Shown here piece by piece: positions 35,660 through 52,203 of a stretch of DNA of 64,000 bases (position 1 is its first letter; the number at the start of each line of letters is the position of its first letter). Made by a program: the position numbers and the translations under genes. Location: IMG/VR virus record IMGVR_UViG_3300036770_003984, positions 32,001 to 96,000 of that record; one strand, written 5' to 3'. Source of the stretch: a virus. Under the pieces are notes generated by a model. That model was not told where the DNA came from. It saw only the letters and a program-made list of their open reading frames with translations, and did no database searches.

Positions 35660-35806
35660 TAGTCCTAATAGGATTTGAACCTATACGTAGATTTTGTATG
35701 TGCTTTTATCTTTGAAATCATCTACTAATTCCCGTTAATAGCGTTACACGAACCTAACAGAGCCATACACATACTCTCACAGCGTCTTCCATTCCGCCAC
35801 AGGACT
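35660..35806 (-). ncRNA. tRNA-scaffold RNA A (147 nt)
   Basis: AGTCCTG/TAGGACT-A acceptor, Leu-type D arm, T arm; anticodon arm replaced by an insert of about 97 nt. Confidence 0.75.
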
Positions 35807-35817
35807 TTGTTAAGTCA

Positions 35818-36105
35818 TTACCAACTATTCACAAATCGAATTTTATGTACTCCATCAGGTATTTCAGAAACAATAATCTCAAAACCTTCTACTTCATCTC
35901 CAAAATATTCGTGTTTTGGTATATTAATCTCCAATTTTTCTTCTAATAGATACCTTCCTGGATATCTACTACCAAAATATTCTGCAGTTTCTTTTGGAAG
36001 CTCTTGTATTTCCGCTTCAATACAAGCAATTACAACTTTAGCGTGTTTCTTATAATTTTCATTTTCAGGTGAAACAAAACCTATAATATGTGTTGACATT
36101 CCCAT
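35818..36105 (-). CDS. Hypothetical protein
   Basis: 95 aa ORF. Confidence 0.7.
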   Translation of the reverse strand: MGMSTHIIGFVSPENENYKKHAKVVIACIEAEIQELPKETAEYFGSRYPGRYLLEEKLEINIPKHEYFGDEVEGFEIIVSEIPDGVHKIRFVNSW

Positions 36106-36129
36106 TTTATTATATTTTTTAATTTTTAG

Positions 36130-36275
36130 TAGTCCTGACAGGAATCGAACCTGTATTTACAACAACACCAATCTGACACATCCGTACCAGTAGAGGAATC
36201 GAACCTCAATATATTGTAACCCCCTTTGGGCTAATGGGATTTGCACCCAAACGTCTTCCATTCCGCCACAGGACT
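36130..36275 (-). ncRNA. tRNA-scaffold RNA B (146 nt)
   Basis: Same ends as A; insert with internal T-arm-like hairpins. Confidence 0.75.
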
Positions 36276-36280
36276 AAATT

Positions 36281-36553
36281 TTAATTTAAACTATCTAATT
36301 CCATACAATATCTTATGAATCTTTGTTCACCATCTTCAGTCTTATATTTGTATTCACCTTCATAAGGTGTATAATAACCTCTGTCATCAAATGGTTCAAA
36401 ACCTATATACTCAACACTTTCATCAAATATAGGACCTTCAACACCCATATATTGATTCAAAAGTAATTCAGCTTTTTCAATAGTACTTGCAGTTAGAATA
36501 GGAAGTCTATCGTTGCTATCTAAGATTATATAAATAAGTGCCATAATATTCAA
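36281..36553 (-). CDS. Hypothetical protein
   Basis: 90 aa ORF. Confidence 0.6.
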   Translation of the reverse strand: MNIMALIYIILDSNDRLPILTASTIEKAELLLNQYMGVEGPIFDESVEYIGFEPFDDRGYYTPYEGEYKYKTEDGEQRFIRYCMELDSLN

Positions 36554-36709
36554 AGTTTTAAAAGTTTTAAAAGTTTTCGGTTTTTCTATTCCAAACCTTA
36601 AAGTCAGGTAACATTCTAAGTGTCAACCACTACTTGTGAATTATTAGGTGTCACAACCAATTTATTAACAATTAAAAAGAAGATAAAGTTCAAAATAAGA
36701 CCTTCATTT

Positions 36710-36928
36710 TTAGAAATATTTTCTTGACGCGTCTTCAATTGTTCCATATTCACCCCCAACACCATTTATAAATTTAAATCCTTTATAAACATTTGACTTA
36801 AGAAGAATATGTTCTAACATACCACACATAACATACTTTTCAGCTGCATTGTGATAATCTGAAGCCAACATTTCATTTACATAAGTTTTATATTCTTCAA
36901 TATTAAATGTTTTTTTCTCTTTAGCCAT
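36710..36928 (-). CDS. Hypothetical protein
   Basis: 72 aa ORF with TATCTTTG promoter upstream. Confidence 0.65.
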   Translation of the reverse strand: MAKEKKTFNIEEYKTYVNEMLASDYHNAAEKYVMCGMLEHILLKSNVYKGFKFINGVGGEYGTIEDASRKYF

Positions 36929-37017
36929 TGTGATTATGTGTTTCAGTGATTAATAAGACAAAGATAGTTGTTCTTCCTGAATTATTCACTTTTTCCTATG
37001 TTTTTTTTTTAAAATTT

Positions 37018-37250
37018 TGGGGTATCTTCCAAGTTAGCTACACTTTTTCAACACCCCCTCATCCTGTAGAAATGGACTAGTGTTTTTTGCCTTTTGTAGA
37101 AAATGCGAGTGACTATCTCGTGTAAACTGCCAACGTCTGGTCTTGGCAACCCTGGTTATAGTGACATATTAACCATAATACGTGGTTGTGTTAACATATT
37201 AACCAAATACGGCAGTTGAGGGCTAGCTGACCACCCAATCTATCTACATC
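37018..37250 (-). ncRNA. Candidate structured ncRNA
   Basis: GC-enriched, ORF-free; four nested long-range helices. Confidence 0.45.
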
Positions 37251-37262
37251 AATTGGGATTTT

Positions 37263-37337
37263 TGGAGCTGGTATGAGGAATCGAACCCCATTATCTTGAT
37301 TACAAGTCAAGTGCATCACCACTTATGCTTTACCAGC
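37263..37337 (-). tRNA. tRNA-Thr(TGT)
   Basis: CTTGA-CT-TGT-AA-TCAAG; encoded CCA. Confidence 0.9.
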
Positions 37338-37344
37338 CAATGTA

Positions 37345-37596
37345 TTATCTTCTTTTATAAACGTAGGTTATTGTATCCCCTATTTTATATACATCACTTC
37401 TTCTTGTCATTATCAATTCATCACAATCGGTTTTATAATTATATCTCTTACCAAATTCAATTGTGGATGGAGATTCTGTTATATACATCGTATCAATCAC
37501 ACACTTCTTAACAATATCACCAGGTTCTATTGTGGGGTGTTTGTTACAGGATACAAAGATAGTGATTAAAGTTGAAAACCAAAATATTTTTTTCAT
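37345..37596 (-). CDS. Putative lipoprotein
   Basis: MKKIFWFSTLITIFVSC lipobox. Confidence 0.6.
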   Translation of the reverse strand: MKKIFWFSTLITIFVSCNKHPTIEPGDIVKKCVIDTMYITESPSTIEFGKRYNYKTDCDELIMTRRSDVYKIGDTITYVYKRR

Positions 37597-38198
37597 TTTT
37601 CCATATGTTTTATAACCCAATTAGCAAATTTTCTATGACCACTCGCAGCAAAATGAATTCCATCACCAGTATCACTATAAAACATTGTAGTGTCCATTGG
37701 AATTATCTTACAATTTTTTAAACCAGTTTTCTCGTGAACCATCAACTTTTGAAACTCAATGTATCTTCCAACACATCTCTTGGTTGTTTCCGCGTCATAG
37801 ACAGTCTTTGTTGTTACTTGAGCTGGATTAAAACCAACAATTACAATTGGTTCAATTCCTCTTCTATTACAACTATCAACCATCATTTGAATGTTATTAA
37901 CAGCACCTTGGAGATTTACATAAGAGAAAGCATCATTACATCCACCATAGATAAAAACACTTGAAAAAGCTGAATCGTTTTTAAAACAAGCGTTTAGGGT
38001 TGTCCTCATATAATCCGTTCTAACACCACCTTTTGATAGATTCACCCTTTGATATCCAAAATGTTTTGAAACTTGATCCTGCCATCCACCAGTCGCACAG
38101 GTTAAACTATCACCGATAAATAATACCCTACGTGGGGGTGTATATGACCAAGATGTCAATAATACAAATAATACTAAAAATACTAAAAATTTTTTCAT
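37593..38198 (-). CDS. Secreted SGNH/GDSL hydrolase
   Basis: Signal peptide; FIGDSL, GGCND, DGIH. Confidence 0.82.
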   Translation of the reverse strand: MKKFLVFLVLFVLLTSWSYTPPRRVLFIGDSLTCATGGWQDQVSKHFGYQRVNLSKGGVRTDYMRTTLNACFKNDSAFSSVFIYGGCNDAFSYVNLQGAVNNIQMMVDSCNRRGIEPIVIVGFNPAQVTTKTVYDAETTKRCVGRYIEFQKLMVHEKTGLKNCKIIPMDTTMFYSDTGDGIHFAASGHRKFANWVIKHMEK

Positions 38199-38229
38199 AA
38201 ATTAAATTTAAAAAATGTTTATTGTTTAG

Positions 38230-38303
38230 TGGAGGATGTCGGCTTTGCTCCGACCACCTCTTGTGTGCAAAACAAGTGCTCTTGCTGAATGAGCTAATCC
38301 CCC
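38230..38303 (-). tRNA. tRNA-Ala(TGC) with atypical D and T loops
   Basis: G3:U70 acceptor GGGGGAT/ATCCTCC; T-loop AGCAAAG. Confidence 0.8.
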
Positions 38304-38376
38304 TTTTTGTATTATGTAATCGTGCTTAAATTTTAGACGTAAGGAAGCTATACACCAACCGACTTACTTTCTCCTA

Positions 38377-38589
38377 TTACATAATTTTTCTCCATAAACC
38401 ACCAGCCAAACATTTGAAATCATCAAAACTTGTTACTCTGATTGGATTTTCTTCATATTGCCATATTTTGCAGGTTATATGAATTTCACCACTTCTAAAG
38501 TCTTTTTTTAAGAAGGTATATAAACCATCACGAGACTTAATATGGATTTTATCCCCAGTTCTAAGATTTCTAAATTCAGACTGATTCAT
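38377..38589 (-). CDS. Hypothetical protein
   Basis: 70 aa ORF between tRNAs. Confidence 0.6.
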   Translation of the reverse strand: MNQSEFRNLRTGDKIHIKSRDGLYTFLKKDFRSGEIHITCKIWQYEENPIRVTSFDDFKCLAGGLWRKIM

Positions 38590-38605
38590 AATGAATTTTT
38601 AAATT

Positions 38606-38680
38606 TGGAGCAGTAAGCGAGACTCGAACTCGCAACATCTTGTTTGGAAGACAAGAACTCTACCATTGAGCTATTACTGC
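38606..38680 (-). tRNA. tRNA-Gly(TCC)
   Basis: Canonical; U73; encoded CCA. Confidence 0.9.
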
Positions 38681-38689
38681 AAATTAGAA

Positions 38690-38886
38690 ATGAAAGTCCT
38701 TCCATAAGTATTATATGGGCAAGAGTTTTACGATGGTTTGTTCCCCATAGCCTGATACCGTGCACAGTAGAGCAGGGTCTCCTACATAACAACTTGGGTC
38801 ATTATTACTCTCGATTTAGGTTGCGATCCTCTGAGAGCCAAGTTCTCTTTCAATGGTGCTAATCCATCCTATGTAAGGTTTCATTT
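38690..38886 (-). ncRNA. Candidate structured ncRNA
   Basis: Closing AAATGAAA/TTTCATTT; internal AACTTGG/CCAAGTT and CTCTC/GAGAG helices. Confidence 0.45.
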
Positions 38887-38892
38887 CTTTTG

Positions 38893-38978
38893 TGGGTGCC
38901 GAGGGATTCGAACCCCCAAGTTTAGCATGTAGCAACTGATTTACAGTCAGCATCCTTCACCAATTTGGATAGACACCC
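38893..38978 (-). tRNA. tRNA-Tyr(GTA)
   Basis: CTGA-CT-GTA-AA-TCAG; long variable arm. Confidence 0.88.
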
Positions 38979-38992
38979 TTTTTAATAATTTG

Positions 38993-39078
38993 ACGCAAGG
39001 TCCAGATTCGAACTGGAGTTCCACTTTCGCAGAAGAGGCTTATGAGACCCCTGACATTGACCACTCGTCCACCTTGCG
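38993..39078 (-). tRNA. tRNA-Met/Ile2(CAT) with long variable arm
   Basis: CGCAAGG/CCTTGCG, GGGGT-CT-CAT-AA-GCCTC, variable arm TTCTGC-GAAA-GTGGAA. Confidence 0.75.
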
Positions 39079-39087
39079 TGATGTTTG

Positions 39088-39220
39088 TTGATTAAAAAGG
39101 ATTCGAACCTTAATCCACAGTCCCTTGCTTCTATCGTTGCCAGCTATTGTCTCCTATTAGGGATATCGTTGCCAGCTATTGTCGACATGGAGTACCGAGT
39201 GCTACCATACACCATAATCA
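39088..39220 (-). ncRNA. Degenerate tRNA-like RNA with tandem-repeat insert
   Basis: TGATTA/TAATCA ends, GTG-TATGGTAG-CAC D arm, AAGG-TTCGAAT-CCTT T arm; insert has ACAATAGCTGGCAACGATA twice. Confidence 0.5.
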
Positions 39221-39272
39221 TTTCCGAGAGTTTCGAACCTCTCAGCCCCAGATTAATTACTTCTGAGATTTG

Positions 39273-39345
39273 TACACCATACGGGATTCGAACCCGTGAC
39301 TCCTCCGTGAAAGGGAGGTGACTTATACCCCTTGTCGAATGGTGC
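39273..39345 (-). tRNA. tRNA-Glu(TTC)
   Basis: CCTCC-CT-TTC-AC-GGAGG. Confidence 0.9.
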
Positions 39346-39467
39346 GTTTTTAAAAATTTGAGGATGAGAAATCCTCTGTGTTGTAGTGTACGATTATGTT
39401 ACTATTCCATAATTCAAGTAATGTCACTCATCTTTATATTTCCTTTCTCAAGGGAACAACACATTTG

Positions 39468-39574
39468 TAGTCCTGACAGGAGTCGAACCTGTATGATGAG
39501 TAGTAATGTTATTTAAGTGACAAGGTACTTACTCATCTATTCACTTCTAGCGTCTTCCATTCCGCCACAAGACT
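39468..39574 (-). ncRNA. tRNA-scaffold RNA C (107 nt)
   Basis: AGTCTTG/CAGGACT-A; pseudoknot-compatible insert; TAATTTTG box 9 nt upstream. Confidence 0.75.
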
Positions 39575-39583
39575 ATTGTCTCA

Positions 39584-39591
39584 CAAAATTA
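39584..39591 (-). promoter_or_regulatory. Bacteroidota -7 promoter box for scaffold RNA C
   Basis: TAATTTTG with TTTG upstream; same spacing at 40155 and 48870. Confidence 0.6.
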
Positions 39592-39637
39592 CGATTTGAT
39601 TTTCTTAATTCCAAATCTTTTTTAAACTTTTTTTTTG

Positions 39638-39730
39638 TAGTCAGGATAGGATTCGAACCTATAACAGATTTGGTACTAATTTAATAGTTTGTAAAACCTC
39701 CCCCGTTTTCACCAGTTAAACTACCTAACT
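39638..39730 (-). ncRNA. tRNA-like RNA D (93 nt), no canonical anticodon arm
   Basis: AGTTAGG/CCTGACT-A, D arm GTTT/AAAC, T arm ATAGG/CCTAT. Confidence 0.6.
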
Positions 39731-39841
39731 ATAATTTAAACCTTTTTACCTTTCATTTAGTTCCAAGAACTAAAACTTTTTTTTAATAATCGGGCTACCC
39801 TCCTTTCGTCACAATCGCCCGACCATTGTGATTTCAGATTG

Positions 39842-39918
39842 TAGTCCTGACAGGATTCGAACCTGTAAACTTCCCCTTCACTTAAGGAGGGGTCACGTGT
39901 GCCTTCCGCCACAAGACT
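39842..39918 (-). ncRNA. tRNA-scaffold RNA E (77 nt), 10-nt anticodon loop
   Basis: Same acceptor/T arm as the family; CCCCT-CCTTAAGTGA-AGGGG. Confidence 0.65.
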
Positions 39919-40038
39919 ATTTAAAAATTTGAGGATGAGAAATCCTCTGTGTTGTAGTGTACGATTATGTTACTATTCCATAATTCAAGTAATGTCACTC
40001 ATCTTTATATTTCCTTTCTCAAGGGAACAACACATTTG

Positions 40039-40145
40039 TAGTCCTGACAGGAGTCGAACCTGTATGATGAGTAGTAATGTTATTTAAGTGACAAGGTACT
40101 TACTCATCTATTCACTTCTAGCGTCTTCCATTCCGCCACAAGACT
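40039..40145 (-). ncRNA. tRNA-scaffold RNA F (copy of C)
   Basis: Identical to 39468..39574. Confidence 0.75.
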
Positions 40146-40224
40146 ATTGTCTCACAAAATTACGATTTGTTTTTCTTAATTCCAAATCTTTTTTAAACTT
40201 TTTTTTTGTAGTCCCAACAAGATT

Positions 40225-40413
40225 CTAATGTAGAATCCATACAGAAGTTAATACACCTGCAATAACCATAACTAATGTTGCTATCCAACAAGTGTTTGAA
40301 ATCTTGTACCATAAATCACTTCTTTTAGTATCGCTATTCATAAGCGACCCAGTAACTCCAGCAACTATGATTGTGATAAGAAGTAGTGTAAAGTAAATTT
40401 TAAAATATATCAT
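40225..40413 (-). CDS. Small membrane protein
   Basis: Two TM helices; its stop runs into a tRNA 3' remnant at 40208-40226. Confidence 0.6.
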   Translation of the reverse strand: MIYFKIYFTLLLITIIVAGVTGSLMNSDTKRSDLWYKISNTCWIATLVMVIAGVLTSVWILH

Positions 40414-40429
40414 GTTTTTTATTTTTTTG

Positions 40430-40513
40430 TACCCAGGGCGGGACTCGAACCCGCACGACCTTACTGGTCACAAGATTTTAAGTCTTGCGTGGCTACCATT
40501 ACACCACCTAGGT
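40430..40513 (-). tRNA. tRNA-Leu(TAA)
   Basis: CAAGA-CT-TAA-AA-TCTTG; long variable arm. Confidence 0.9.
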
Positions 40514-40740
40514 AAATTTAAATACTTTTTTAATGTGGGGGAGTTGTATCCGTTAAATCATCCCATATTCTACCTAACCAAGAGTTTGGATATTTCTTAA
40601 CTACCCAATTACCAAAAAGTGTTAGAAGAATAAATAAAACTATAAACACAATCCAATTAATCATAATCTTTTTTAATTTAAGTTACATTATTATAAACCA
40701 ACCTTCATCTCATTTAGTTCCAACTTTTAAAACTTTTTTT

Positions 40741-40815
40741 TGGCGGTACCAAGGGGAATCGAACCCCTACCATAAGAGTGACAACCTTATATTCTTGCCG
40801 TTAAACTATGGTACC
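40741..40815 (-). tRNA. tRNA-Asp(GTC)
   Basis: G73; encoded CCA. Confidence 0.88.
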
Positions 40816-40862
40816 AAATATTTTTCCCTCAATTTCAATGAACATCACAAAAGTAGGTAATC

Positions 40863-41342
40863 TTATCCAATTTTCCAAGCTCCATAGATAGTTTTTTTTC
40901 TCTTTGTTGCATCATCTGGATTTCCAATCACCACCCCATCTTTAATTGTAAAAGCGTGACCTTTGACTGTGACTATGTAAGTTCCTTTGGGATAATCCTC
41001 CAAAAACTTTGCAGTTGTCATACTTCTCAAAGTGTTTACACCTTTAACCTTAATCCAATAAGAAAGGTTCACATCTTTACTTATTGTTTTAATTTTTTTT
41101 CTATTAACACTAATTCCTTTACTTTCCAAAGTCCTCATCACCAAACTAAAACAATAAGTTCCTTGTCCGTTTTTTCTTCCAAATATTTCAGCAACCTTTT
41201 TGTGAGCAAAATCATAAGTCACGTTGAAAGCTGAAGCAAAAGCTCTAACTACACAATCGTTTGTTTCAGACTTTGCAAGTCCTGAATCATTAATCCCTTT
41301 TATGGCGACCGAAGAGGATATGTATGGTGTTTGTTTTCTCAT
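40863..41342 (-). CDS. Hypothetical protein
   Basis: NDCVVRA...GHAF motifs (possible Cys-His dyad); own TAACTTTG promoter. Confidence 0.7.
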   Translation of the reverse strand: MRKQTPYISSSVAIKGINDSGLAKSETNDCVVRAFASAFNVTYDFAHKKVAEIFGRKNGQGTYCFSLVMRTLESKGISVNRKKIKTISKDVNLSYWIKVKGVNTLRSMTTAKFLEDYPKGTYIVTVKGHAFTIKDGVVIGNPDDATKRKKTIYGAWKIG

Positions 41343-41390
41343 ACCACAAAGTTACAAAACCATTTCTAATTCCCAAACTCTGTGACAAAA

Positions 41391-41423
41391 AAAAATCCAT
41401 CTTTTTTTTAGGAAGATGGATTT
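41391..41423 (-). terminator. Intrinsic terminator
   Basis: AAATCCATCT/AGATGGATTT followed by a U tract. Confidence 0.7.
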
Positions 41424-41450
41424 GATTTTATTAACAATTAAAACCTTATA

Positions 41451-41522
41451 TCATACCATCTCCATCCGAGGATTTCTACCCTCAGCTCCAGTCGTTAAGT
41501 CCATATAGAGATTGTGTTTCAT
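41451..41522 (-). CDS. Candidate leader peptide (23 aa)
   Basis: MKHNLYMDLTTGAEGRNPRMEMV*, directly upstream of the terminator. Confidence 0.4.
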   Translation of the reverse strand: MKHNLYMDLTTGAEGRNPRMEMV

Positions 41523-41583
41523 TTGTGAAGTTTTTACTATTTTTTTATTAAATATAACGATATAATACAAAAGGTCAAGTTAG

Positions 41584-41901
41584 TTACAAAAATTGTGAAA
41601 TAATTTGTGCTACTTTATATCCAGTGAATGCCCCCAATGCCGCTGAACCAGGTAAAACAATGAATTTACCAAAATTACTTTCATATTTTGCACGATTAAC
41701 AATATAAGATATTAAGATATAATATAAGAAAAAATTAATCAATACGGCAAGATCAATTTCTTTGGCCATAAACACAACAATTGAGTTACCAAAGAATCCC
41801 CAACTGAAGTTAATCAATGTTTCTCTTATTAATTCACTAACAGATGTCTTAGCATCGGCTACCTTAATTTCTTTTGTAAATATATTTTTTTTCTTTTTCA
41901 T
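41584..41901 (-). CDS. Hypothetical membrane protein
   Basis: Three hydrophobic segments. Confidence 0.65.
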   Translation of the reverse strand: MKKKKNIFTKEIKVADAKTSVSELIRETLINFSWGFFGNSIVVFMAKEIDLAVLINFFLYYILISYIVNRAKYESNFGKFIVLPGSAALGAFTGYKVAQIISQFL

Positions 41902-41903
41902 AA

Positions 41904-42143
41904 CTATTCTAAAATATCCCCAAATCCGTTTTCATCATTTATGTCTTTTATTTTTATTTTAGTACTCCATGACAATTTAAAATAATTAGTTTTTGATATT
42001 TCATCATATTGATTAAAACAAAATGCTGATAATGGGTACATACTTTCGATATCTATTTCATCAACAATAAGTTCAATAATTATTTTATCTCCTTTTTTAA
42101 TTGTTTCATCTTGCAATGCTTTTAATACGCCTATTGTTTTCAT
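41904..42143 (-). CDS. Hypothetical protein
   Basis: Ends DENGFGDILE, like the upstream gene. Confidence 0.55.
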   Translation of the reverse strand: MKTIGVLKALQDETIKKGDKIIIELIVDEIDIESMYPLSAFCFNQYDEISKTNYFKLSWSTKIKIKDINDENGFGDILE

Positions 42144-42158
42144 ATTATTATCTTTTTT

Positions 42159-42674
42159 TTATTCTAAAATATCACCAAATCCGTTCTCATCCAACCAATC
42201 TTTGTCATCATCAATTTCTTTTAATTCATATTCAAACGCGAATATATTACATACAACATCATCAGCACTTGAAAAAGTTTCGTGAATGAAATCAAAATCA
42301 TCTGGTTCTAATTGAAACTTTTCTTTGTTTAAACATTTGAATAATTCTTTTGATGTTTTAAAAACATTTGGAGTTGTATAAGTTTTTAATCTACCCTCCA
42401 TTTCCATATGTTCAAATTTCTTATAGAATTTATCATTAAACACCAAGATGTTTTCAGTTCCCCATTCATTTAGAACTTGCATTATAAATGTTTTTAATCC
42501 TTGAAAACAAGCTGTACGATAGTCATCAAATTGTTGTTGAACGGAGACATCTCCAAATTCAACTTCACTTGTTTCCTTTTCGTGTTCGGCAATTTTATCC
42601 AATGCCATTAGTTGGAGTTGTTCCCAAGTTGTATCATAGGGTTTATAGAAATTTACAATTACCATTGGTGTCAT
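42159..42674 (-). CDS. Hypothetical protein
   Basis: 171 aa. Confidence 0.7.
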   Translation of the reverse strand: MTPMVIVNFYKPYDTTWEQLQLMALDKIAEHEKETSEVEFGDVSVQQQFDDYRTACFQGLKTFIMQVLNEWGTENILVFNDKFYKKFEHMEMEGRLKTYTTPNVFKTSKELFKCLNKEKFQLEPDDFDFIHETFSSADDVVCNIFAFEYELKEIDDDKDWLDENGFGDILE

Positions 42675-42683
42675 ATTTAAAAA

Positions 42684-43325
42684 TTATTTATTTTCATTTG
42701 TATCATAAAACATATACTCAGAATCTTCGGTTGCCCACTTATCATAACCCTCACAATTATAATAATCCTTATTAACCAAATAATCAGGTCTCTCAGGGAA
42801 AGATTTTGTGACAAAGGATGGTTCTGACCATCTTATTCTATTATTCGGTTGTAGGGCAATCTGGCCATTATCTAGTAGTATTATATGATGTGACTTATGT
42901 TCCATTGGGTCTTCTGCCAAAGTAAAGTCACTATTCAAATCACTAGAACCCCAATTTATTGTTGCATAATAACTTCCATCATACCATTTCTTATCTTTCA
43001 TAAAGACTGAAACTCTGGTATCATAGACATAACTTAAATGATGTACCGAGAAATTATATGAAAAACAATTCCATATTTGAAGATAATGGAATGGTAAATC
43101 AACATCAGGTAATTTGGGTTCAGTTAATAATGCGTGAGATGGAAGTTTATCTCTCATAACACCATTATTAAATAATACTTGGAATAATGCCGCTTGTCCT
43201 GGTAAACATCTAACTGAGATTATAACACCCTCAGTAAATTCACCAAATCCCTTCTTATTTTGATATAGATATTCATTTCGAACATATACCTTTAATGGGA
43301 AAAAATTACCTTCAATATAAGCCAT
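42684..43325 (-). CDS. Hypothetical phage protein
   Basis: 213 aa; W/H/C-rich globular sequence. Confidence 0.75.
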   Translation of the reverse strand: MAYIEGNFFPLKVYVRNEYLYQNKKGFGEFTEGVIISVRCLPGQAALFQVLFNNGVMRDKLPSHALLTEPKLPDVDLPFHYLQIWNCFSYNFSVHHLSYVYDTRVSVFMKDKKWYDGSYYATINWGSSDLNSDFTLAEDPMEHKSHHIILLDNGQIALQPNNRIRWSEPSFVTKSFPERPDYLVNKDYYNCEGYDKWATEDSEYMFYDTNENK

Positions 43326-44663
43326 TTAAATTAATATTATTTTTTTAATAATTGTATTCTCATCAATATTAATCTTAACTATATAAATTCCTTTTGACAA
43401 TGAGGATAAATCAATTTGAGATGTCGGATTCTCAATAACAAATTCAACCCCAAGTTCATTAAATAGTGAAATTCTATTAATATTTTTGGTTGTTTTTATA
43501 TTCAATATATCTTTTGTTGGATTGGGATATATTAATATATCATCGTTAATTTTATTTGAGATATTAATAATATTACTATAAGTTATATCACCACTATATT
43601 CAACAATTTTAAGTCTATAATAATTTTCTGAGTAAGTCAAATCATCAATATAATTCATTGTTAAATCATAAGGATAAATCTCAGAAATGGGATACAAATC
43701 ATAACCATTTGAACTCTTCTCCAACTCAATATAATTGACCTCTGTGACATCATCAAGTGTCCATTGAAGATTGACATCATCGTTGATTTTTGTCCCCTTA
43801 AATTCAATTATACCAATTGGTAATATTGTCCCACAATCAACCAATGTTGTTGATGAACCAATATTAATTGGGTCTAATAAGTTTGAATAATTATAAGTCC
43901 CCATTCTTAATGAATTTATAAAATATCTATTGGCATCATTATTTGGTTGACCTGGAGTTTCATTTGTTGGGGTAACACCTCTACTGAAATTGACTTTTGC
44001 TCCAAAACTACCACTATTGAAAAAATAATTTCTTTGCAATCCACTCCCTGTTATAATATTAAAAGATGAACCACCAAATGGAAAAGTGGGAAATGGGGTT
44101 GACACATCACCATATGAAAATCCGTGAAAAAATGAACCATTTGGACTTCTAACTTGTGCGGCATCACCATCATTTCTAAATCCAACCCTATCCCAAATTC
44201 TTGTTGCGGCATAACTAACTGGAGTATACAATGGATTTGTTGTTGTTGGTAAATTTGATGTATTATCCAAACACAAATCACTTATTGGTAAAATATAAAC
44301 ACAATCACCATCAAAATCTAATGGGTCTGGAGTTATCCCAAAAGTGGGATTAACATCAGCGCTATTATAAATTAAAATAATTGACCCAGGTTTTACATTG
44401 GATAAACATCCTGGTTTAATTCTTATATGACCTTGAGCAGTACCAACCCCACTTAAAACACCTTCAAAATCTCCATTATTATCATCTATTATCCATCCAC
44501 CCAAGTCTACACTTATTGTAGGGTTTGAAGTCGAGCCAATAACAACTAACTCAAAATATTCTCTGTTTCCAGAATCACCATTTGATATTTCATTTATTAT
44601 AAGACCTTGGGAATAAATTAAAAAAGGTAAAAAGATTAGTAAAATTAAATAGAAAATTTTCAT
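43326..44663 (-). CDS. T9SS type-A CTD protein with lamin-tail-like domain
   Basis: Signal peptide; LIINEI N-domain; ILPI..I.FKG linker; IYPNPT....NI...IDLSSLSKGIYIVKI......KII. Confidence 0.85.
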   Translation of the reverse strand: MKIFYLILLIFLPFLIYSQGLIINEISNGDSGNREYFELVVIGSTSNPTISVDLGGWIIDDNNGDFEGVLSGVGTAQGHIRIKPGCLSNVKPGSIILIYNSADVNPTFGITPDPLDFDGDCVYILPISDLCLDNTSNLPTTTNPLYTPVSYAATRIWDRVGFRNDGDAAQVRSPNGSFFHGFSYGDVSTPFPTFPFGGSSFNIITGSGLQRNYFFNSGSFGAKVNFSRGVTPTNETPGQPNNDANRYFINSLRMGTYNYSNLLDPINIGSSTTLVDCGTILPIGIIEFKGTKINDDVNLQWTLDDVTEVNYIELEKSSNGYDLYPISEIYPYDLTMNYIDDLTYSENYYRLKIVEYSGDITYSNIINISNKINDDILIYPNPTKDILNIKTTKNINRISLFNELGVEFVIENPTSQIDLSSLSKGIYIVKINIDENTIIKKIILI

Positions 44664-44674
44664 AGTTTAAACGA

Positions 44675-44986
44675 TTATTCATTAATAGAGCTGTACTCTC
44701 TCAATAAATAGTCGGTAAAATCTTCCACACTTTCAACATTAACTTCAATTTCATCATACCAAATCTTTTTTTCAATATTTTCATACAACCACCAACCAAC
44801 TAAATCCTGTATCCATCCGTATTGTTCGTCTTTTTCTTTTCTGAGAATGGTCGGAATAGACTTCTCAAGCTGGGACGTGGTATTGTTAAAGTCAAGTAAA
44901 TCAACTCCCATATCATACAACTTGTGCACTTTTTCATCGTGTTCCTTGATTTTCTTTAATGTTTCGATTATGTAATCCCTTACCAT
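44675..44986 (-). CDS. Hypothetical protein
   Basis: 103 aa. Confidence 0.65.
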   Translation of the reverse strand: MVRDYIIETLKKIKEHDEKVHKLYDMGVDLLDFNNTTSQLEKSIPTILRKEKDEQYGWIQDLVGWWLYENIEKKIWYDEIEVNVESVEDFTDYLLREYSSINE

Positions 44987-45022
44987 AATAAATATTATTT
45001 AATTGTTAAATTTTTAAATTTG

Positions 45023-45097
45023 CGAGAACGATAGGACTTGAACCTATAACCTGTGGGTCTGGAATCCACTGCTCTAATCCAATTGAGCTACATTCCC
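45023..45097 (-). tRNA. tRNA-Trp(CCA)
   Basis: Loop TT-CCA-GA, G73; one mismatch in the anticodon stem. Confidence 0.82.
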
Positions 45098-45125
45098 ATA
45101 TGTTTTGTAAAGATAATAATAACTT

Positions 45126-45875
45126 TTAAATATTTCCGTATTTCTTATTCCAAATTTCAATATTTTCAAGTAGTTCGGATAATGTTAAAGACGATTTACC
45201 ATTTTTAGACGAATTATCCGAAAATAAAAGTAATTCACAATTTGCTGGATGAGATAAAATATTAGGGTCTATTTTATTTCTATAACCTTCCATCACTGAA
45301 TATTTATGGTCTTTTGTGACACCAACCAAATTATTTTTTTTATTTGTTGGGGAATACCATCCATATTGTTCAATTAAAATTAAATCAAATTCTTGTGGAT
45401 AATCCTTTACATTAAATTGAAAAGTACAAGAAGGTCTATAATATTGATAATACTCTAACCTACAATTAGTACAAACAATTTTGTACTTTTCAATAACTTT
45501 ATTATTACAAATCCTACAAGTTTTTATTTTTCCAACTTTAGGTTTAGTAGGGTTTGTCGGTTTAGTTGGTTTACTTTTTAATGTTTTTGAGATTTTATTT
45601 TTAGTTTCTTCACTATGTTTACGTTTTTTATTATTAAACGTTGTTGAACAAGATGAATTACAAAATAATTTGTTTTTACTTAAATAAGACTCAAATGTAT
45701 TTCCACAATTTTTACAAGTTTTATTTGTTGTATAAACTACTTGTAAACCTAATCTAAACATTTTGTTAGTTATCGTTTTATACGTAACTCCAAAAATTTC
45801 AGCAATCCTATTTGGTTTTAAACCTTGATTAACCAAATCAATTAATTTTTCAATATCGTTATCATTCCATTTCAT
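45126..45875 (-). CDS. Putative homing endonuclease (HTH + Zn finger + His-Me-like C-domain)
   Basis: HTH N-terminus, CKNC...CNSSC, C-terminal TKDHKYSV...HPANC...NSSK; sits between two tRNAs. Confidence 0.65.
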   Translation of the reverse strand: MKWNDNDIEKLIDLVNQGLKPNRIAEIFGVTYKTITNKMFRLGLQVVYTTNKTCKNCGNTFESYLSKNKLFCNSSCSTTFNNKKRKHSEETKNKISKTLKSKPTKPTNPTKPKVGKIKTCRICNNKVIEKYKIVCTNCRLEYYQYYRPSCTFQFNVKDYPQEFDLILIEQYGWYSPTNKKNNLVGVTKDHKYSVMEGYRNKIDPNILSHPANCELLLFSDNSSKNGKSSLTLSELLENIEIWNKKYGNI

Positions 45876-45927
45876 AAATATAAATATCAACAAAATGAGT
45901 AAAAATAACTAACTGAACTATTTTTTG

Positions 45928-46013
45928 AGGTCGGGGAGGGATTTGAACCCACGATGAATTTTTCATTCGATAGTTTTGCAGACTAGTGCCTTAACCAACT
46001 CGGCCACCCGACC
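45928..46013 (-). tRNA. tRNA-Cys(GCA) with long variable arm
   Basis: GGTCGGG/CCCGACC, U73, loop CT-GCA-AA, variable arm ATGAA-AAA-TTCAT. Confidence 0.78.
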
Positions 46014-46029
46014 CTATTGTTTCTTTTTT

Positions 46030-46238
46030 AATCCCCCAACTTCACCCCACTCGTCAGTGGGGGATTGGTTGAGTTAAGCTTCCTAACTTATACCTTGGGC
46101 TATTCGTTTACAAGCAACAAGACCACAGCAGTGAGCAGTTCTTATGGGATGCCTCGTGGTACTATTATAACATAAAGAACAATTACCTACTAGCACCTCA
46201 CACCGAAATTGTAGGCAGGCTCGGTCCCTTAATTGTTC
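46030..46238 (-). ncRNA. Candidate structured ncRNA
   Basis: GAACAATTA/TAATTGTTC domain with crossed helices, ACCAC/GTGGT domain, GC-rich 3' hairpin. Confidence 0.4.
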
Positions 46239-46244
46239 AAATCT

Positions 46245-46493
46245 TTATTTCACGATTGTTTGTATTTCAAAATTTTTGGAGTTTTTATCATTACTCTTGT
46301 GAGTCACAGAACCATTACAAGTTGTAAAATACTTGTACCCATTATCCCAAAATCGATATACTTTACACCCATCGACCTCAAATAGAAGTTCAACTCTATA
46401 ATTCACATTATCTGTTTTTAGTTCTTCTAAACCTTCTCTTTGACAACTAAGGAATAATACAGATACCAAACCAAGAAATAATATTTTTTTCAT
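46245..46493 (-). CDS. Lipoprotein (DUF4884-like)
   Basis: FLSC lipobox; LLFEVDGCKVYRF..NG..YFT.C. Confidence 0.65.
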   Translation of the reverse strand: MKKILFLGLVSVLFLSCQREGLEELKTDNVNYRVELLFEVDGCKVYRFWDNGYKYFTTCNGSVTHKSNDKNSKNFEIQTIVK

Positions 46494-46522
46494 TTTTTTT
46501 ATATTTTAAAAATCATTTAATG

Positions 46523-46607
46523 TGTCCTTACCTAGATTCGAACTAGGATTATACTTCTCGTCTCCACTTTGTAAGAGTGGGATGTTTAACCATTACACCA
46601 TAAGGAC
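46523..46607 (-). tRNA. tRNA-Val(TAC) with 16-nt variable region
   Basis: GTCCTTA/TAAGGAC-A, CCACT-CT-TAC-AA-AGTGG. Confidence 0.78.
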
Positions 46608-46809
46608 TATTTATAAAAGAATGATTGGGCTATACTGATAATTGTACTCCAATAGAACCGAGACCGCGTATCTTAGTTACCTTTCCTAGTTTACAGTCAA
46701 AGTCCTGAACTTTCGTTCCATTCTTAATTTTTATTTTCAGACCCATAATGTCAAAAAATATTTCTACTATTTTATAATAACACCTTTCGATAAGTGACTT
46801 ATTGTGTTG

Positions 46810-46884
46810 TGACCCTGGGGAGATTCGAACTCCCGCTCCCAATATTAAAAGTATTGTGCTTTAAACCAGCTAAGCTACAGGGTC
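46810..46884 (-). tRNA. tRNA-Lys(TTT)
   Basis: CAATA-CT-TTT-AA-TATTG. Confidence 0.88.
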
Positions 46885-46957
46885 ATTTTCTTGTTTCTTA
46901 ATGTAGTTGTTGTACTTATTTCTAAGCATTTCATAAAACTTGGATGAACTTGGTTTT

Positions 46958-47185
46958 CTAATTGTCCGTTTCATTTGTTATTTTTTTAAGTGAGTTACAT
47001 CTACATAACACATTGAAGTAATGAATTGGTTCCATATGGTAGTTATTTTTGTCATCCAAATAAATCACCACCTCCATATCCACAATTGCCCTAATTTCGA
47101 TGTGTTTATTGTTTGGATTATCTTCACTATAATCAATAAACAACTTATCACCAACCTTAAATTCACCAATTTTTACATTAACCAT
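46958..47185 (-). CDS. Hypothetical protein
   Basis: 75 aa. Confidence 0.55.
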   Translation of the reverse strand: MVNVKIGEFKVGDKLFIDYSEDNPNNKHIEIRAIVDMEVVIYLDDKNNYHMEPIHYFNVLCRCNSLKKITNETDN

Positions 47186-47201
47186 AATTTATTAAAATTT
47201 G

Positions 47202-47274
47202 CGTCCCAGGTAGGATTCGAACCTACGACAACTTGATTAACAGTCAAGGGCTACTACCACTGAGCTACTGAGAC
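47202..47274 (-). tRNA. tRNA-Asn(GTT)
   Basis: CTTGA-CT-GTT-AA-TCAAG, G73. Confidence 0.88.
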
Positions 47275-47282
47275 ATTTGTTG

Positions 47283-47359
47283 TCGGCAAGATAGGAATCG
47301 AACCTATATGTAACCAATTAACCTTTCTACCGTGTATCAGACGGAGGGTATACTTGCCG
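47283..47359 (-). tRNA. Rearranged tRNA-Ile(GAT)-like RNA
   Basis: 7-bp acceptor, A73, loop CT-GAT-AC, canonical T arm; no D arm 5' of the anticodon; D-loop-like AATTGGTTA lies 3' of it. Confidence 0.7.
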
Positions 47360-47372
47360 TATTATAATTCTG

Positions 47373-47449
47373 TAGGAAAGATGGGGTTCGAACCCATATG
47401 TTACCAGTTACCCTTTCTACGGCGTATAAGGCTGAGGGGATACTTTCCT
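47373..47449 (-). tRNA. Rearranged tRNA-Ile(TAT)-like RNA
   Basis: Paralog of 47283..47359 with compensatory changes; loop CT-TAT-AC. Confidence 0.7.
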
Positions 47450-47457
47450 AAATGTTG

Positions 47458-47542
47458 TAGAGTAGACAGGACTTGAACCTGCAGCGTCACTATGACCCTT
47501 GTTCCCAAAACAAGACGGCTTCCATTTACCGGGTACTACTCT
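47458..47542 (-). tRNA. tRNA-Pro(TGG) with long variable arm
   Basis: AGAGTAG/CTACTCT-A, CTTGT-TT-TGG-GA-ACAAG, variable hairpin GTCA-TAG-TGAC. Confidence 0.75.
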
Positions 47543-47881
47543 ATATTATTAAACCATATATAAATCCAAACAAAAGAACAATTAGAAATATAATTCCAAC
47601 TATAAACAAGTCTGAGTTCTTTGTTTTGTAAGACAAAATTAAGAATAAGATTCCAATAATCAAAAATAAAAGACCAATAATTACTAACATTTTTTAATTA
47701 TTTTTATCATATAAAATCCAAAAACGTAAACTAACCATAAACCAAATTTGAGAACCTAATAGCCAAAACCAAGTCATTAAATCTCGGTCATATTCTATTT
47801 CGTAGACAAATAGACAAAAATATCCTATACCTATTAAAAGCGAAAAAAGTGCAGAAATTTTATTTTTCATATTAGTTTGTT

Positions 47882-48094
47882 TTAATTTTCATCTTTAATT
47901 AAATCTAATACCCATTGTAAGAGTAATATTTTTTCTTTAAAAGAATGTTCAAAATCTTGACACATTACAAAAGATGGGTCACCCTCTTTTATAGTTTCTT
48001 CTGTCCATTTAAAATTTATTTGTCTATCTTTCCAATACTTCACACGTTTTTCAAACTCTTCTATTTTTTCAAGTATTTTTTTTCTTGCGTTCAT
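47882..48094 (-). CDS. Hypothetical protein
   Basis: 70 aa. Confidence 0.6.
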   Translation of the reverse strand: MNARKKILEKIEEFEKRVKYWKDRQINFKWTEETIKEGDPSFVMCQDFEHSFKEKILLLQWVLDLIKDEN

Positions 48095-48121
48095 TATATT
48101 TTAATTTTATAGTTTAAAAAA

Positions 48122-48248
48122 TAGTCCTGACAGGATTCGAACCTGTATTATGTGTGGACTCGAACCACTTTGAAAGGTGTTTCCTTTCCTGTAAACCCAG
48201 TACAGCTCCCAATATCTGAGAGGCGTCTACCAATTCCGCCACAGGACT
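48122..48248 (-). ncRNA. tRNA-scaffold RNA H (127 nt)
   Basis: AGTCCTG/CAGGACT-A; insert with GTGG-TTCGAGT-CCAC. Confidence 0.75.
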
Positions 48249-48416
48249 AAAATTCTACCATCTTACATATACACTAAAAAATAATAGTGCAATTGTGAAC
48301 ACTCGTTTTGTCCGACTGTGTGGGGTTCGTTGATATGACAATCCCAAATCGAACCACCATTCTTTATTGTCTAGTGTATTTAATGTGATTTCAACTTTCA
48401 TAACTTTTAATTTTTG

Positions 48417-48546
48417 TAGTCCTGACAGGATTCGAACCCGTATTAAGCTACATATTGTTTATGTTAGACCTTTCGCTCCAATCCTAGTATTAAGGAGTGT
48501 CTGAACATTCAATCTTCACTCTACCCTTAGCTTTCGCCACAGGACT
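48417..48546 (-). ncRNA. tRNA-scaffold RNA I (130 nt), D arm eroded
   Basis: Acceptor and T arm intact; AAGCTA/TAGCTT closes the insert. Confidence 0.6.
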
Positions 48547-48712
48547 AAATTTATTTAAAGTACACCAATTGCTTTTAATACAAATGGCGTTATTGCACAA
48601 GTAAGAACCAATAAATAAAACCACATTGGCATTACTCCGCTAATTTCGTTTCCTACTTTTCTATTTAAAAACTCTTTAAGCTCTTTCATAACTTTTATTT
48701 TTTAATTTTTTG

Positions 48713-48860
48713 TAGTCCTGACAGGATTCGAACCTGTAAAAATTAAGCATGTACTCGTCACTCGGATAATCTGTACAACACTATGACTTTGCATATTTAC
48801 TCCGAGAAAATATACTGCCTTAGTTATCTTAATAGCGTCTACCAATTCCGCCATAGGACT
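48713..48860 (-). ncRNA. tRNA-scaffold RNA J (148 nt)
   Basis: Family ends; ATTAAG/CTTAAT and CTCGGA/TCCGAG helices; TTTG...TAATTTTG promoter 9 nt upstream. Confidence 0.75.
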
Positions 48861-49016
48861 ATTGTATCACAAAATTACGATTTCATTTTCTAATTTCCAA
48901 ACACTTTGGAATATTTTTTTATTCATTTAAAATGATTAGGTGGGTCGCTCATCTCCACTGTCTGCATTCCTTTGAGTTATGAACTCAACTGCTCTAATCT
49001 TATTAAGATTTTTCTG

Positions 49017-49103
49017 CGGAGGACAGAGGACACGAACCCCACACCATACTTGGTGCCACTCGCTTAGCAGGCGGTGGTAACGACCCTGATTACTTTATCC
49101 TCC
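49017..49103 (-). tRNA. tRNA-Ser(GCT)
   Basis: G73, long arm, loop CT-GCT-AA. Confidence 0.82.
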
Positions 49104-49108
49104 AATTG

Positions 49109-49339
49109 TTAACGTATGTGAACTCTGTCGTGGTCAGTTCCAACTATAACTGATACCTCATTTATAGTGTCATAATCTCCACCATAATCAATATCAATGG
49201 TTACTTCATAGTCATTATAACCTTCATCAGCTAATTCTTGTAATTTATCAATTAACCATTTTACAGTCTTAACTTTAGGTTTCACTGGTGTTTTTTCGGG
49301 TACATACCACACCCCATTTATTTGAATCCTATTTTCCAT
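49109..49339 (-). CDS. Hypothetical protein
   Basis: 76 aa. Confidence 0.6.
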   Translation of the reverse strand: MENRIQINGVWYVPEKTPVKPKVKTVKWLIDKLQELADEGYNDYEVTIDIDYGGDYDTINEVSVIVGTDHDRVHIR

Positions 49340-49422
49340 ATTTTTAATTATTTTTGTTTAAGGTTATCATTTACATAAACCTATCCAATAATTATTTAGT
49401 TCCAAGATTTAAATTTTTTTTG

Positions 49423-49545
49423 TAGTCTTGATAGGATTTGAACCTATACGATAACTGAGAACTGATTTACCCTGCTAATAGTTTAAAGGAGATTCACCTT
49501 CCAGCTAAGTTATCACAGCTGCGTCTACCATTCCGCCACAAGACT
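49423..49545 (-). ncRNA. tRNA-scaffold RNA K (123 nt)
   Basis: AGTCTTG/CAAGACT-A; insert closed by GATAACT/AGTTATC. Confidence 0.75.
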
Positions 49546-49553
49546 GAGTTTTG

Positions 49554-49626
49554 TAGTCCCAGCCCGATTTGAACGGGCATCTTATCATCCGTAGTGATAG
49601 ATTCTAATCCATTGAACTATGGGACT
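49554..49626 (-). tRNA. tRNA-Arg(ACG)
   Basis: TATCA-CT-ACG-GA-TGATA. Confidence 0.88.
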
Positions 49627-49635: not shown

Positions 49636-49722
49636 CGGAAAGCTGAGGTGTCGATCCCCATACAATACAATTGTACCTATCGTTTTCAAGACGTAGACTC
49701 GGGCCGCCGAGCTTAACTTTCC
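49636..49722 (-). tRNA. tRNA-Ser(TGA)
   Basis: G73, long arm; T-loop ATCGACA is atypical. Confidence 0.78.
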
Positions 49723-52137: not shown

Positions 52138-52203
52138 AATATTCTGTTTTTGAATTTGTTTTGAAAGTATATAATTAATACTTTGGTTTGTCAAGGGTTT
52201 TGA

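Follow-up and report, generated by a model that had tools for sequence, protein, structure and literature searches.

Nine probable RNA genes built on a tRNA-Leu frame

The window analysed here, 64,000 nucleotides (nt) of viral DNA (positions 32,001 to 96,000 of the IMG/VR record IMGVR_UViG_3300036770_003984), harbours nine related elements, E1 to E9, in which the top half of a leucine transfer RNA (tRNA) encloses an insert of variable sequence. With a probability of roughly 0.55, we regard these elements as genes for non-decoding RNAs derived from a phage class II tRNA-Leu, in which the tRNA top half acts as a handle and the insert as the working part. The window belongs to a record of 128.5 kilobases (kb), rated 43% complete. 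All RNA genes of the array discussed here are located on the minus strand, in 16 kb that also contain about 24 tRNA genes (ARAGORN, Rfam).

The original prediction had listed nine elements by their low coordinates, which correspond to the 3′ ends of these minus-strand genes. All nine were confirmed, with the predicted lengths of 77 to 148 nt (Table 1). From 5′ to 3′, the constant build consists of an acceptor stem of 7 base pairs (bp), U8 and G9, the D arm, the insert, T48, a T arm with a 5-bp stem, of the form A(C/T)AGG-TTCRAWT-CCT(G/A)T, the 3′ acceptor strand, and A73, which is constant in nine out of nine elements as had been claimed. Seven elements possess GCGGAAT(T)GG(A/T)AGACG(C/T), the usual D arm of bacterial tRNA-Leu. 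The two eroded D arms of the prediction are those of E4, which is deviant, and E7, where a GC-GAAA-GC hairpin replaces the arm. The acceptor pair A1-U72 is unusual for a tRNA. The DNA after A73 usually reads CA, so that CCA is not encoded.

Both constant ends occur far above chance. The 5′ motif AGTCYTGTGGCG was found nine times at 0-1 mismatch, compared with about 1.4 occurrences expected at up to two mismatches, and the 3′ motif gave 12 matches with 0.07 expected. The rest of the 128.5-kb record contained no more copies of the frame. In a covariance model built from 16 short family members, with a structure limited to the acceptor, D and T stems, the nine elements were the top matches, at full length and 47-68 bits, while ordinary tRNAs reached at most 41 bits. 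Ranked among the nine, at 49 bits, was a related element of 94 nt whose T arm and 3′ end are similar and whose D arm is different.

The inserts between the D and T arms are 25-96 nt long and mostly unrelated between elements. They had been predicted to be mutually unrelated throughout; eight are distinct, whereas E3 and E5 carry the same insert, because both lie within a 300-nt direct repeat (39349-39648 and 39920-40219, 98% identity) and represent one duplication. In E1 the T stem is ATAGG/CCTAT and G7-U66 is a wobble pair. Three hairpins are present in the E2 insert: one has the loop UGCAAAU, another resembles a second T arm (GAGG-TTCGATT-CCTC), and a third has 7 bp. In E3 the helices AAGTGA/TCACTT and GATGAGTA/TACTCATC are interleaved and are predicted to form a pseudoknot. 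The E6 insert has four consecutive hairpins, the last of them T-arm-like (GTGG-TTCGAGT-CCAC). The E8 insert is closed by ATTAAG/CTTAAT, and an A7xC66 mismatch in its acceptor stem is present in this genome only. In E9, which starts 8 nt past tRNA-Arg(ACG), the insert is closed by GATAACT/AGTTATC and the acceptor pair U5-A68 is compensated.

Absence of a decoding arm from most elements

E1, E3, E5, E7, E8 and E9 lack an anticodon arm, defined by a stem, a 7-nt loop, U33 and the anticodon itself. The predicted replacement of the anticodon arm thus stands for most elements, whereas three need qualification. E4 can be drawn as tRNA-Leu(UAA) (ARAGORN; Rfam 38.2 bits), although this requires a C-A mismatch in the stem and leaves G37; an alternative fold has a perfect 5-bp stem and a 10-nt loop. 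E2 and E6 have a short hairpin at the position of the anticodon arm, with the 7-nt loops UGCAAAU and AGAUAUU, both without U33. Against the Rfam tRNA model (RF00005; gathering threshold 29 bits), E4 reached 38.2 bits, E3 and E5 reached 31.8, and the best match overlapping E8 scored 20.7; the other five elements (E1, E2, E6, E7 and E9) remained unmatched at E = 5. Automatic annotation misses the elements, or miscalls them as tRNA-Leu or as a tRNA with an odd anticodon.

Group I introns are known to occur in the anticodon loop of bacterial tRNA-Leu genes, and the phage encodes an RNA ligase, so the inserts might be introns whose removal gives an ordinary tRNA-Leu. We give this explanation almost no credence. 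The search of the inserts against introns, ribozymes, riboswitches and other Rfam families gave no match even at E = 5, the inserts of 25-96 nt are far below the length of a group I core, and, with the exception of E4, their flanks supply neither the halves of an anticodon stem-loop nor a Leu anticodon. Ordinary tRNA-Leu(UAG) and tRNA-Leu(UAA) genes, built on other frames, are already present in the window. Splicing to ordinary tRNAs, which the original prediction had named as an outcome that would speak against it, is accordingly not supported.

The frame in other phages

Scanning IMG/VR for exact copies of the 5′ or the 3′ constant end revealed the frame in about 90 viral DNA stretches, with inserts of dozens of kinds and element lengths of 70-212 nt. 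The carriers include many uncultured freshwater phages. The covariance-model search of the constant ends that had been proposed with the prediction returned the nine elements first, and 103 matches (66 distinct) in 93 sources. Among these matches 97% of the stem cells are paired, and seven of the 15 pairs show two-sided changes. These pairing values were reached by none of 500 shuffles, and slid partners pair at 30-39%. The alignment behind the figures was fitted to the covariance model, which favours pairing, but the raw counts agree: the T stem ACAGG/CCTGT changes to ATAGG/CCTAT, ACAAG/CTTGT and CCGGG/CCCGG, and the acceptor pair C5-G68 changes to U-A via U-G. T48 is present in 42 of 42 distinct elements, and A73 in every element extracted without constraint on that base. 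The D arm is deviant in about a quarter of the family members. With the covariance model and the same frame in other phages, the proposal of a tRNA-Leu frame with its decoding part replaced describes a real family.

The acceptor stem and T arm of the frame are also found in other phages on real-looking tRNAs, such as a tRNA-Arg(ACG) and a 91-nt class II tRNA(UAU) with a covarying anticodon stem and an encoded CCA. The latter tRNA is present in many estuarine and marine phage contigs (L177-L179, L190, L230-L259 and others). Several further phage contigs carry the frame alone, with no tRNA gene within kilobases. Three near-complete carriers (two rated 100% complete and one 95%) were examined: G017, of 46 kb, has three elements, and G005 (54 kb) and G016 (41 kb) have one each. 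No tRNA genes were detected in G017 and G005, and G016 has one dubious ARAGORN call. These genomes have between zero and one protein in common with the phage of the window, the single weak match being endolysin-like, and G017 and G005 have no proteins in common with each other. Since the frame occurs alone in phages without tRNA genes, the frame RNA gene is not a by-product of tRNA arrays.

An insert of the E3 type is also present in the unrelated G017, where both interleaved helices are kept. AAGTGA/TCACTT is unchanged, GATGAG/CTCATC has become GATAAG/CTTATC, and the loops between the helices have diverged. Search for the E7 insert motif found no more distant orthologues of this type.

No protein neighbour is consistently found beside the frame in other phages; the neighbours include endolysin, HNH endonuclease and primase. 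As no phage protein travels with the frame, its reader probably belongs to the host. When bacterial genomes were scanned for host copies with a 16-mer, at least 120 matches were obtained, mostly due to chance among the matches listed, and the only real element among these was on a mis-binned phage contig. BLAST of both element regions against GenBank phages matched ordinary tRNAs only.

Turnover of elements and conservation of inserts

Four close relatives (G001-G004), with a backbone identity of 85-99% and the tRNA order kept, were compared with the window. The number and type of frame elements differ at four hot spots, Arg(ACG)/Ser, Ser/Pro, Leu(UAA)/Glu and Thr/Arg(UCU), and the breakpoints between relatives coincide with the frame ends. 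E7, for example, is kept from position -7 to A73 while both flanks differ, and the 3′ end of E6 in the window is aligned to that of the G002 copy of E7, with common sequence after it. Between G003 and G004 the whole stretch between a 5′ and a 3′ frame end is swapped, one genome having a 40-nt insert and the other about 965 nt with three elements. Small open reading frames (ORFs) between the elements are swapped too, and are not tied to the insert type. The idea that each insert type is paired with a neighbouring small ORF was rejected, as the neighbours of E7 and E8 differ in the relatives. Among the lake metagenome contigs that align to the window, depth is very high at the frame ends, and many joints of a 3′ frame end to a 5′ frame end have other letters between them; there are therefore more insert types.

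Among the relatives compared, E1 is restricted to this genome, E6 is absent from G001 and G002, and orthologues of E2 and E7 are found in all four. At hot spot C of G001 and G002 (L030:722-814, and copies) we found a 93-nt frame element that is nearly a class II tRNA-Leu(CAA), with a 3-bp anticodon stem and an 8-nt loop, for which ARAGORN gives the four-base anticodon CAAG.

Divergence at third codon positions is 4.4% relative to G002 and 12.4% relative to G003 and G004. Against this background, the E7 insert shows 0/78 changes in all relatives; four changes elsewhere in the element all preserve its stems. The E8 insert shows 0/96 changes. At least two inserts, those of E7 and E8, are thus under purifying selection. 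Compensatory changes were seen in E2, E3 and the T stem of E7. In E2, four changes relative to G004 make up two compensated pairs in the first hairpin, and another turns U-G into C-G.

Several observations weigh against a functional RNA. The E9 insert has 3/71 changes and the E2 insert about 10% changed positions compared with G004, both roughly the neutral rate. Folding energies of the seven distinct long inserts (without E4) are slightly better than those of shuffled sequences, none significantly (z = -0.1 to -1.8; 8 of 200 shuffles in the best case), and the closing helix is no more regularly placed, in the way of a variable arm, than in shuffled controls. The T arm and following strand within the E2 insert resemble the 3′ part of tRNA-Thr, and look like a relic of recombination. 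In addition, the stems are near-invariant in sequence, beyond what pairing needs, which could reflect recent horizontal spread or a role at the DNA level instead of RNA function. The predicted structure of the inserts has weak energetic support, and a few helices show compensatory changes. Of the neutral evolution that had been named as a mark of decayed pseudogenes, the E7 and E8 inserts give no sign, whereas those of E9 and E2 come near the neutral rate.

These points would fit functionless tRNA-Leu duplicates or recombination scars in decay, with the constant ends serving as short DNA homologies for the shuffling of small genes, similar to the promoter-stem-loop cassettes of T4-type phages. 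Breakpoints exactly at the frame ends, the small ORFs exchanged along, HNH endonuclease genes in or beside the arrays, and a 300-nt duplication bounded by tRNA-like 3′ ends agree with this explanation. Nevertheless, selection on the RNA fold is evident from compensated pairs in acceptor, T and D stems, no variation is seen at T48 and A73, and the E7 and E8 inserts are conserved far beyond third codon positions. Neither the helices of the E3 type kept in an unrelated phage, with one compensated pair and diverged loops, nor single elements in small phages without tRNA arrays or repeats for recombination are expected of scars. We therefore consider this explanation unlikely.

Putative promoters and processing signals

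The original prediction had placed a promoter exactly 9 nt upstream of three copies, and the distance was confirmed for E3, E5 and E8, which have the block TAATTTTG at that place. The block TCGTAATTTTGTG, with the Bacteroidota-type -7 element TAnnTTTG, ends exactly 9 nt before the same three elements, and one further copy is present in the array at 49970-49982. Since E3 and E5 are one duplication, these are effectively two independent cases.

The tRNA frame is recognised by RNase P, RNase Z, the CCA-adding enzyme, the enzymes of T-loop modification and EF-Tu. The base at position -1 is T in 29 of 44 distinct contexts compared with a background of 34% (p = 1.6e-5, a figure inflated by relatedness), which matches the U(-1) preference known for bacterial RNase P. 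A metagenome scan for non-templated CCA after the 3′ end of the frame gave genomic copies only, namely the 91-nt class II tRNA(UAU) and similar CCA-encoding tRNAs. Among the public runs matching positions 39601-49600, DNA runs are from subsurface, freshwater and lake-water metagenomes, and no RNA run was listed.

Proposed mode of action and leucylation

If the elements are genes for non-decoding RNAs, they would be transcribed either along with the tRNA array or from a TAnnTTTG promoter of their own. The 5′ end would be cut by host RNase P and the RNA would be cut after A73 by RNase Z or exonucleases, and CCA would then be added by the host enzyme. Stable L-shaped RNAs could accumulate in this way, with the tRNA top half as the handle for processing, stability and host factors, and the insert as the type-specific working part. 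The target of the insert is probably a host component, because no phage protein is shared among the carriers and no antisense matches to the phage were found. The inserts' longest complements within the 128-kb phage record measure 11-13 nt, as do those of shuffled inserts, and the suggested antisense cargo, as far as it would act on the phage itself, is not supported. The term "display system", as used in the prediction, overstates what can be said of the inserts.

Few synthetases disregard the anticodon, and leucyl-tRNA synthetase (LeuRS) is among them. The bacterial enzyme is reported to need A73, U8-A14, the contact of G18/G19 with the T loop, and A15-U48, and in Aquifex removing the entire anticodon stem-loop increases the Michaelis constant (Km) only 2.5-fold (PMC2377443). 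All these determinants, with G18/G19 facing U55/C56, are present in E1, E2, E3, E5, E6, E8 and E9, and leucylation of seven of the nine elements is plausible from their sequences. The set is incomplete in E7, which lacks the D loop and hence G18/G19, and in E4 with its deviant D arm. As E7 is the best conserved type, leucylation is not the common denominator; it may occur in seven of nine and would not be required for the whole family.

Charging could nonetheless be the point of the elements, if they were leucylated, anticodon-less mimics of Leu-tRNA that, for example, donate the aminoacyl group, compete for LeuRS or EF-Tu, or enter the ribosome in the manner of tmRNA. The critical elements known from the Aquifex enzyme are kept in seven of nine, and the transfer-messenger RNA (tmRNA) gene in the same window illustrates the principle. 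This reading is possible, but we hold it to be less probable than not by a wide measure, as it gives no reason for inserts that are diverse yet conserved, the most conserved element and about a quarter of the family deviate in the D arm, and RNA1 of phage T5, a similar RNA, shows imperfections in its acceptor stem and lacks a clear A73. Search of the 128-kb record, which is 43% complete, did not find LeuRS, CCA-adding enzyme or leucyl/phenylalanyl-transferase. The transferase family is also absent from a Bacteroides control genome, and for these two reasons a donor role via leucyl/phenylalanyl-transferase is unlikely in this host group.

All members have just the acceptor-T minihelix with A73 in common; other phages also have it on real-looking tRNAs of other isotypes, and the number of copies is high and varies between strains, similar to counter-defence genes. 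The elements might therefore sequester, as decoys or sponges, host factors or defences directed at the top half or the 3′ end of tRNAs, such as acceptor-end or T-loop toxins, with the inserts being secondary. However, no known defence targets the frame, ordinary phage tRNAs would do as well, and the conserved inserts of E7 and E8 would be left without explanation, so that we find this role very doubtful. Decoys for anticodon nucleases, which had been suggested originally, make little sense without an anticodon loop.

As a speculative extension of the reading as non-decoding RNAs, to which we attach little confidence, unrelated phages may share a universal tRNA top half as a plug-in handle for host processing, and possibly for LeuRS. 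Cargo RNAs would be traded at the constant ends in an integron-like manner, and the cargos could bind host factors or components of defences in the manner of aptamers or mimics.

If the RNAs are made and stable, they would be a natural counterpart of the engineered tRNA scaffold, with many small RNAs on one frame, and, with a frame common to unrelated phages and exchanged like a cassette, a new class of phage non-coding RNA. They would also use the tRNA shape, and perhaps leucylation, outside decoding, and offer a lead on the stable RNAs of T4 and T5 that have gone without explanation for decades.

Ro60-like protein near the array

Just upstream of the array, the window encodes a protein with DUF2828 and DUF7788 domains. 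The 13 best Protein Data Bank (PDB) matches of its AlphaFold model (mean predicted local distance difference test, pLDDT, 73.6) are all Ro60/TROVE proteins over the full length, among them the Ro60 of Thermus phage phiLo (E = 2.5e-8, template-modelling score 0.57). The same gene is also located upstream of the tRNA array in relatives with 70-73% identity. Directly after the gene there are two small RNAs, each with a stem, TTCAGCAA, a loop and the returning stem; at 50430-50488, Rfam gave a weak match to Dictyostelium Class I RNA (21 bits, E = 1.4).

Y RNAs of bacteria and phages are tRNA mimics found next to Ro60 genes (PMC4201824, PMC12135203), on the same strand and within 4 kb (PMC4201824). 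E6 to E9 are within this distance on the same strand, and the start of E7, GGCGAAAG, fits the reported GNCGAAN0-1G motif, so that the elements might be Y-RNA-like partners of the protein. We consider this highly improbable. The protein is missing from five near-complete frame-carrying phages, there are relatives with the Ro60-like gene and a tRNA array without the frame, and the GNCGAA motif is at chance level (two seen, with an estimated 3.6 or so expected). The Ro-binding handle CAGCAA is absent from the frame inserts, and the two RNAs directly after the gene have TTCAGCAA, a handle found in no frame insert. The partnership was rejected on these grounds.

Genomic context of the array

The structural genes of the phage, including Gp23 capsid, Gp20 portal and terminase, are T4-like, and the resemblance to T4 is limited to structural genes. 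A type IX secretion sorting tail on one protein and the TAnnTTTG promoter blocks point to a putative Bacteroidota host. The genes for tmRNA, RNA ligase and a ClpB-like ATPase are all upstream of the array (Table 1). Two genes, one for an HNH endonuclease and one for a protein with NUMOD3 motif, interrupt the array as in T5; in another contig (L051) an HNH gene directly follows a frame element.

The class II shape of tRNA is in bacteria normally limited to Leu, Ser and Tyr. The array also possesses tRNAs of class II length (86-87 nt), with a long variable arm, that have the anticodons Met(CAU), Cys(GCA), Val(UAC) and Pro(UGG); the D arm of the tRNA-Cys(GCA) is Ser-like. A paralogous pair of 77-nt tRNA-like elements of another type has a 7-bp acceptor stem, T arm and A73, and no recognisable D arm or anticodon arm. 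More stem-closed sequences are present between the tRNA genes, one of them (about 49905-49965) directly after the promoter block copy at 49970-49982. The array resembles a general platform for the expression of small structured RNAs. A match to the freshwater-1 RNA motif, below the gathering score, is located between tRNA-Gly and tRNA-Tyr (Table 1).

Table 1. Positions of the nine elements and of other features in the window
Feature	Position	Strand	Remarks
ClpB-like double AAA ATPase	20609-22639	+	
tmRNA, phage-encoded	24924-25304	+	ARAGORN
RNA ligase (PF09414 with PHA02142 OB domain)	28374-29399	-	
HNH endonuclease	33584-34264	-	within tRNA array, arrangement as in T5
E1, 147 nt	35660-35806	-	Leu frame, 95-nt insert; covariance model 47.3 bits
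E2, 146 nt	36130-36275	-	
freshwater-1 RNA motif match, full model	38726-38786	-	58.9 bits, gathering score 72; between tRNA-Gly and tRNA-Tyr
Class-II-length tRNA-Met(CAU)	38992-39078	-	
E3, 107 nt	39468-39574	-	
Promoter block TCGTAATTTTGTG before E3	39582-39594	-	Bacteroidota-type -7 element TAnnTTTG
Related 94-nt tRNA-like gene	39638-39730	-	T arm and 3′ end (CCTGACTA) similar, D arm different; ARAGORN: Val(UAC)
E4, 77 nt	39842-39918	-	shortest member; covariance model 67.8 bits
E5	40039-40145	-	identical copy of E3
Promoter block TCGTAATTTTGTG before E5	40153-40165	-	within duplication
Frame-like element, truncated 3′ end	40209-40228	-	at duplication edge
NUMOD3-motif protein	45126-45893	-	within tRNA array, arrangement as in T5
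Class-II-length tRNA-Cys(GCA)	45927-46013	-	
Class-II-length tRNA-Val(UAC)	46522-46607	-	
Paralogous pair of other-type tRNA-like elements, 77 nt each	47283-47359, 47373-47449	-	Rfam tRNA 31.1, 28.6 bits
Class-II-length tRNA-Pro(UGG)	47457-47542	-	
E6, 127 nt	48122-48248	-	
E7, 130 nt	48417-48546	-	78-nt insert
E8, 148 nt	48713-48860	-	96-nt insert
Promoter block TCGTAATTTTGTG before E8	48868-48880	-	
Stem-closed sequences between tRNA genes	~48900-48995, ~49640-49720, ~49905-49965	-	
E9, 123 nt	49423-49545	-	
Two small RNAs: stem, TTCAGCAA, loop, returning stem	~50360-50415, ~50430-50490	-	directly after Ro60-like gene
DUF2828 + DUF7788 protein (Ro60-like)	50734-52194	-	just upstream of array

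Comparison with known systems

Class II tRNA-Leu (RF00005) shares with the elements the acceptor stem, U8, D arm, T arm and A73. The canonical anticodon stem-loop is gone from the elements, with E4 doubtful, and six of them are below the tRNA threshold. As in the elements, a tRNA top half is joined in tmRNA to a large non-tRNA body; the synthetase that charges tmRNA takes no account of the anticodon, and tRNA enzymes process it. However, the elements have U3-A70 and not G3-U70, possess neither a tag reading frame nor a pseudoknot ring, gave no tmRNA match with Rfam or ARAGORN, and have a Leu instead of an Ala chassis.

YrlA is another non-coding RNA with a tRNA-like module, and a Ro60-like gene is nearby in the window. 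In Mycobacterium smegmatis YrlA is cut by RNase P and receives CCA (PMC4201824). Its topology is reversed compared with the elements, as it is the ends of YrlA that make up the Ro-binding stem; a Ro handle is missing from the elements, which are also present in phages without a Ro60 protein.

In engineered tRNA scaffolds, and in the tRNA-microRNA transcripts of murine herpesvirus 68 (MHV68), a tRNA body gives a passenger RNA processing and protection, and in the engineered scaffolds the insertion point is the anticodon arm. The former are artificial and the latter belong to a eukaryotic virus, and there is no homology with the elements.

The species 1 and 2 RNAs of phage T4 (rnaC and rnaD) are stable, are co-transcribed and processed with the phage tRNAs, and their function is unexplained. 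They are probably similar to the elements.

RNA1 and RNA2 of phage T5 (NC_005859, 30501-30644 and 32959-33083) are annotated as "tRNA-like stable RNA with unknown functions". Both are found in the phage tRNA cluster next to HNH endonuclease genes, and their function is likewise unexplained. RNA1 has U8-G9, then a Leu-type D arm (CCGGAATTGGTAGACGG), about 90 nt and a T arm, although it differs from the elements in its acceptor stem and at position 73. RNA2 has a closing stem of 7-8 bp, a frame-like T arm (GCAGGTTCGAATCCTGT) and an inner T-arm hairpin similar to those of E2 and E6. The inserts and acceptor stems of the T5 RNAs have no sequence similarity to those of the elements; T5 infects Escherichia coli, and its RNAs are single copies instead of a multi-copy family on one invariant frame. 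Rfam contains no such family, and full-text literature searches gave no paper on multiple copies of a single invariant Leu frame whose inserts are exchangeable. The closest counterparts described are RNA1 and RNA2 of T5, with which the elements share the build: location in a tRNA cluster, a tRNA-like closing stem, a D and/or T arm, and a long non-tRNA middle.

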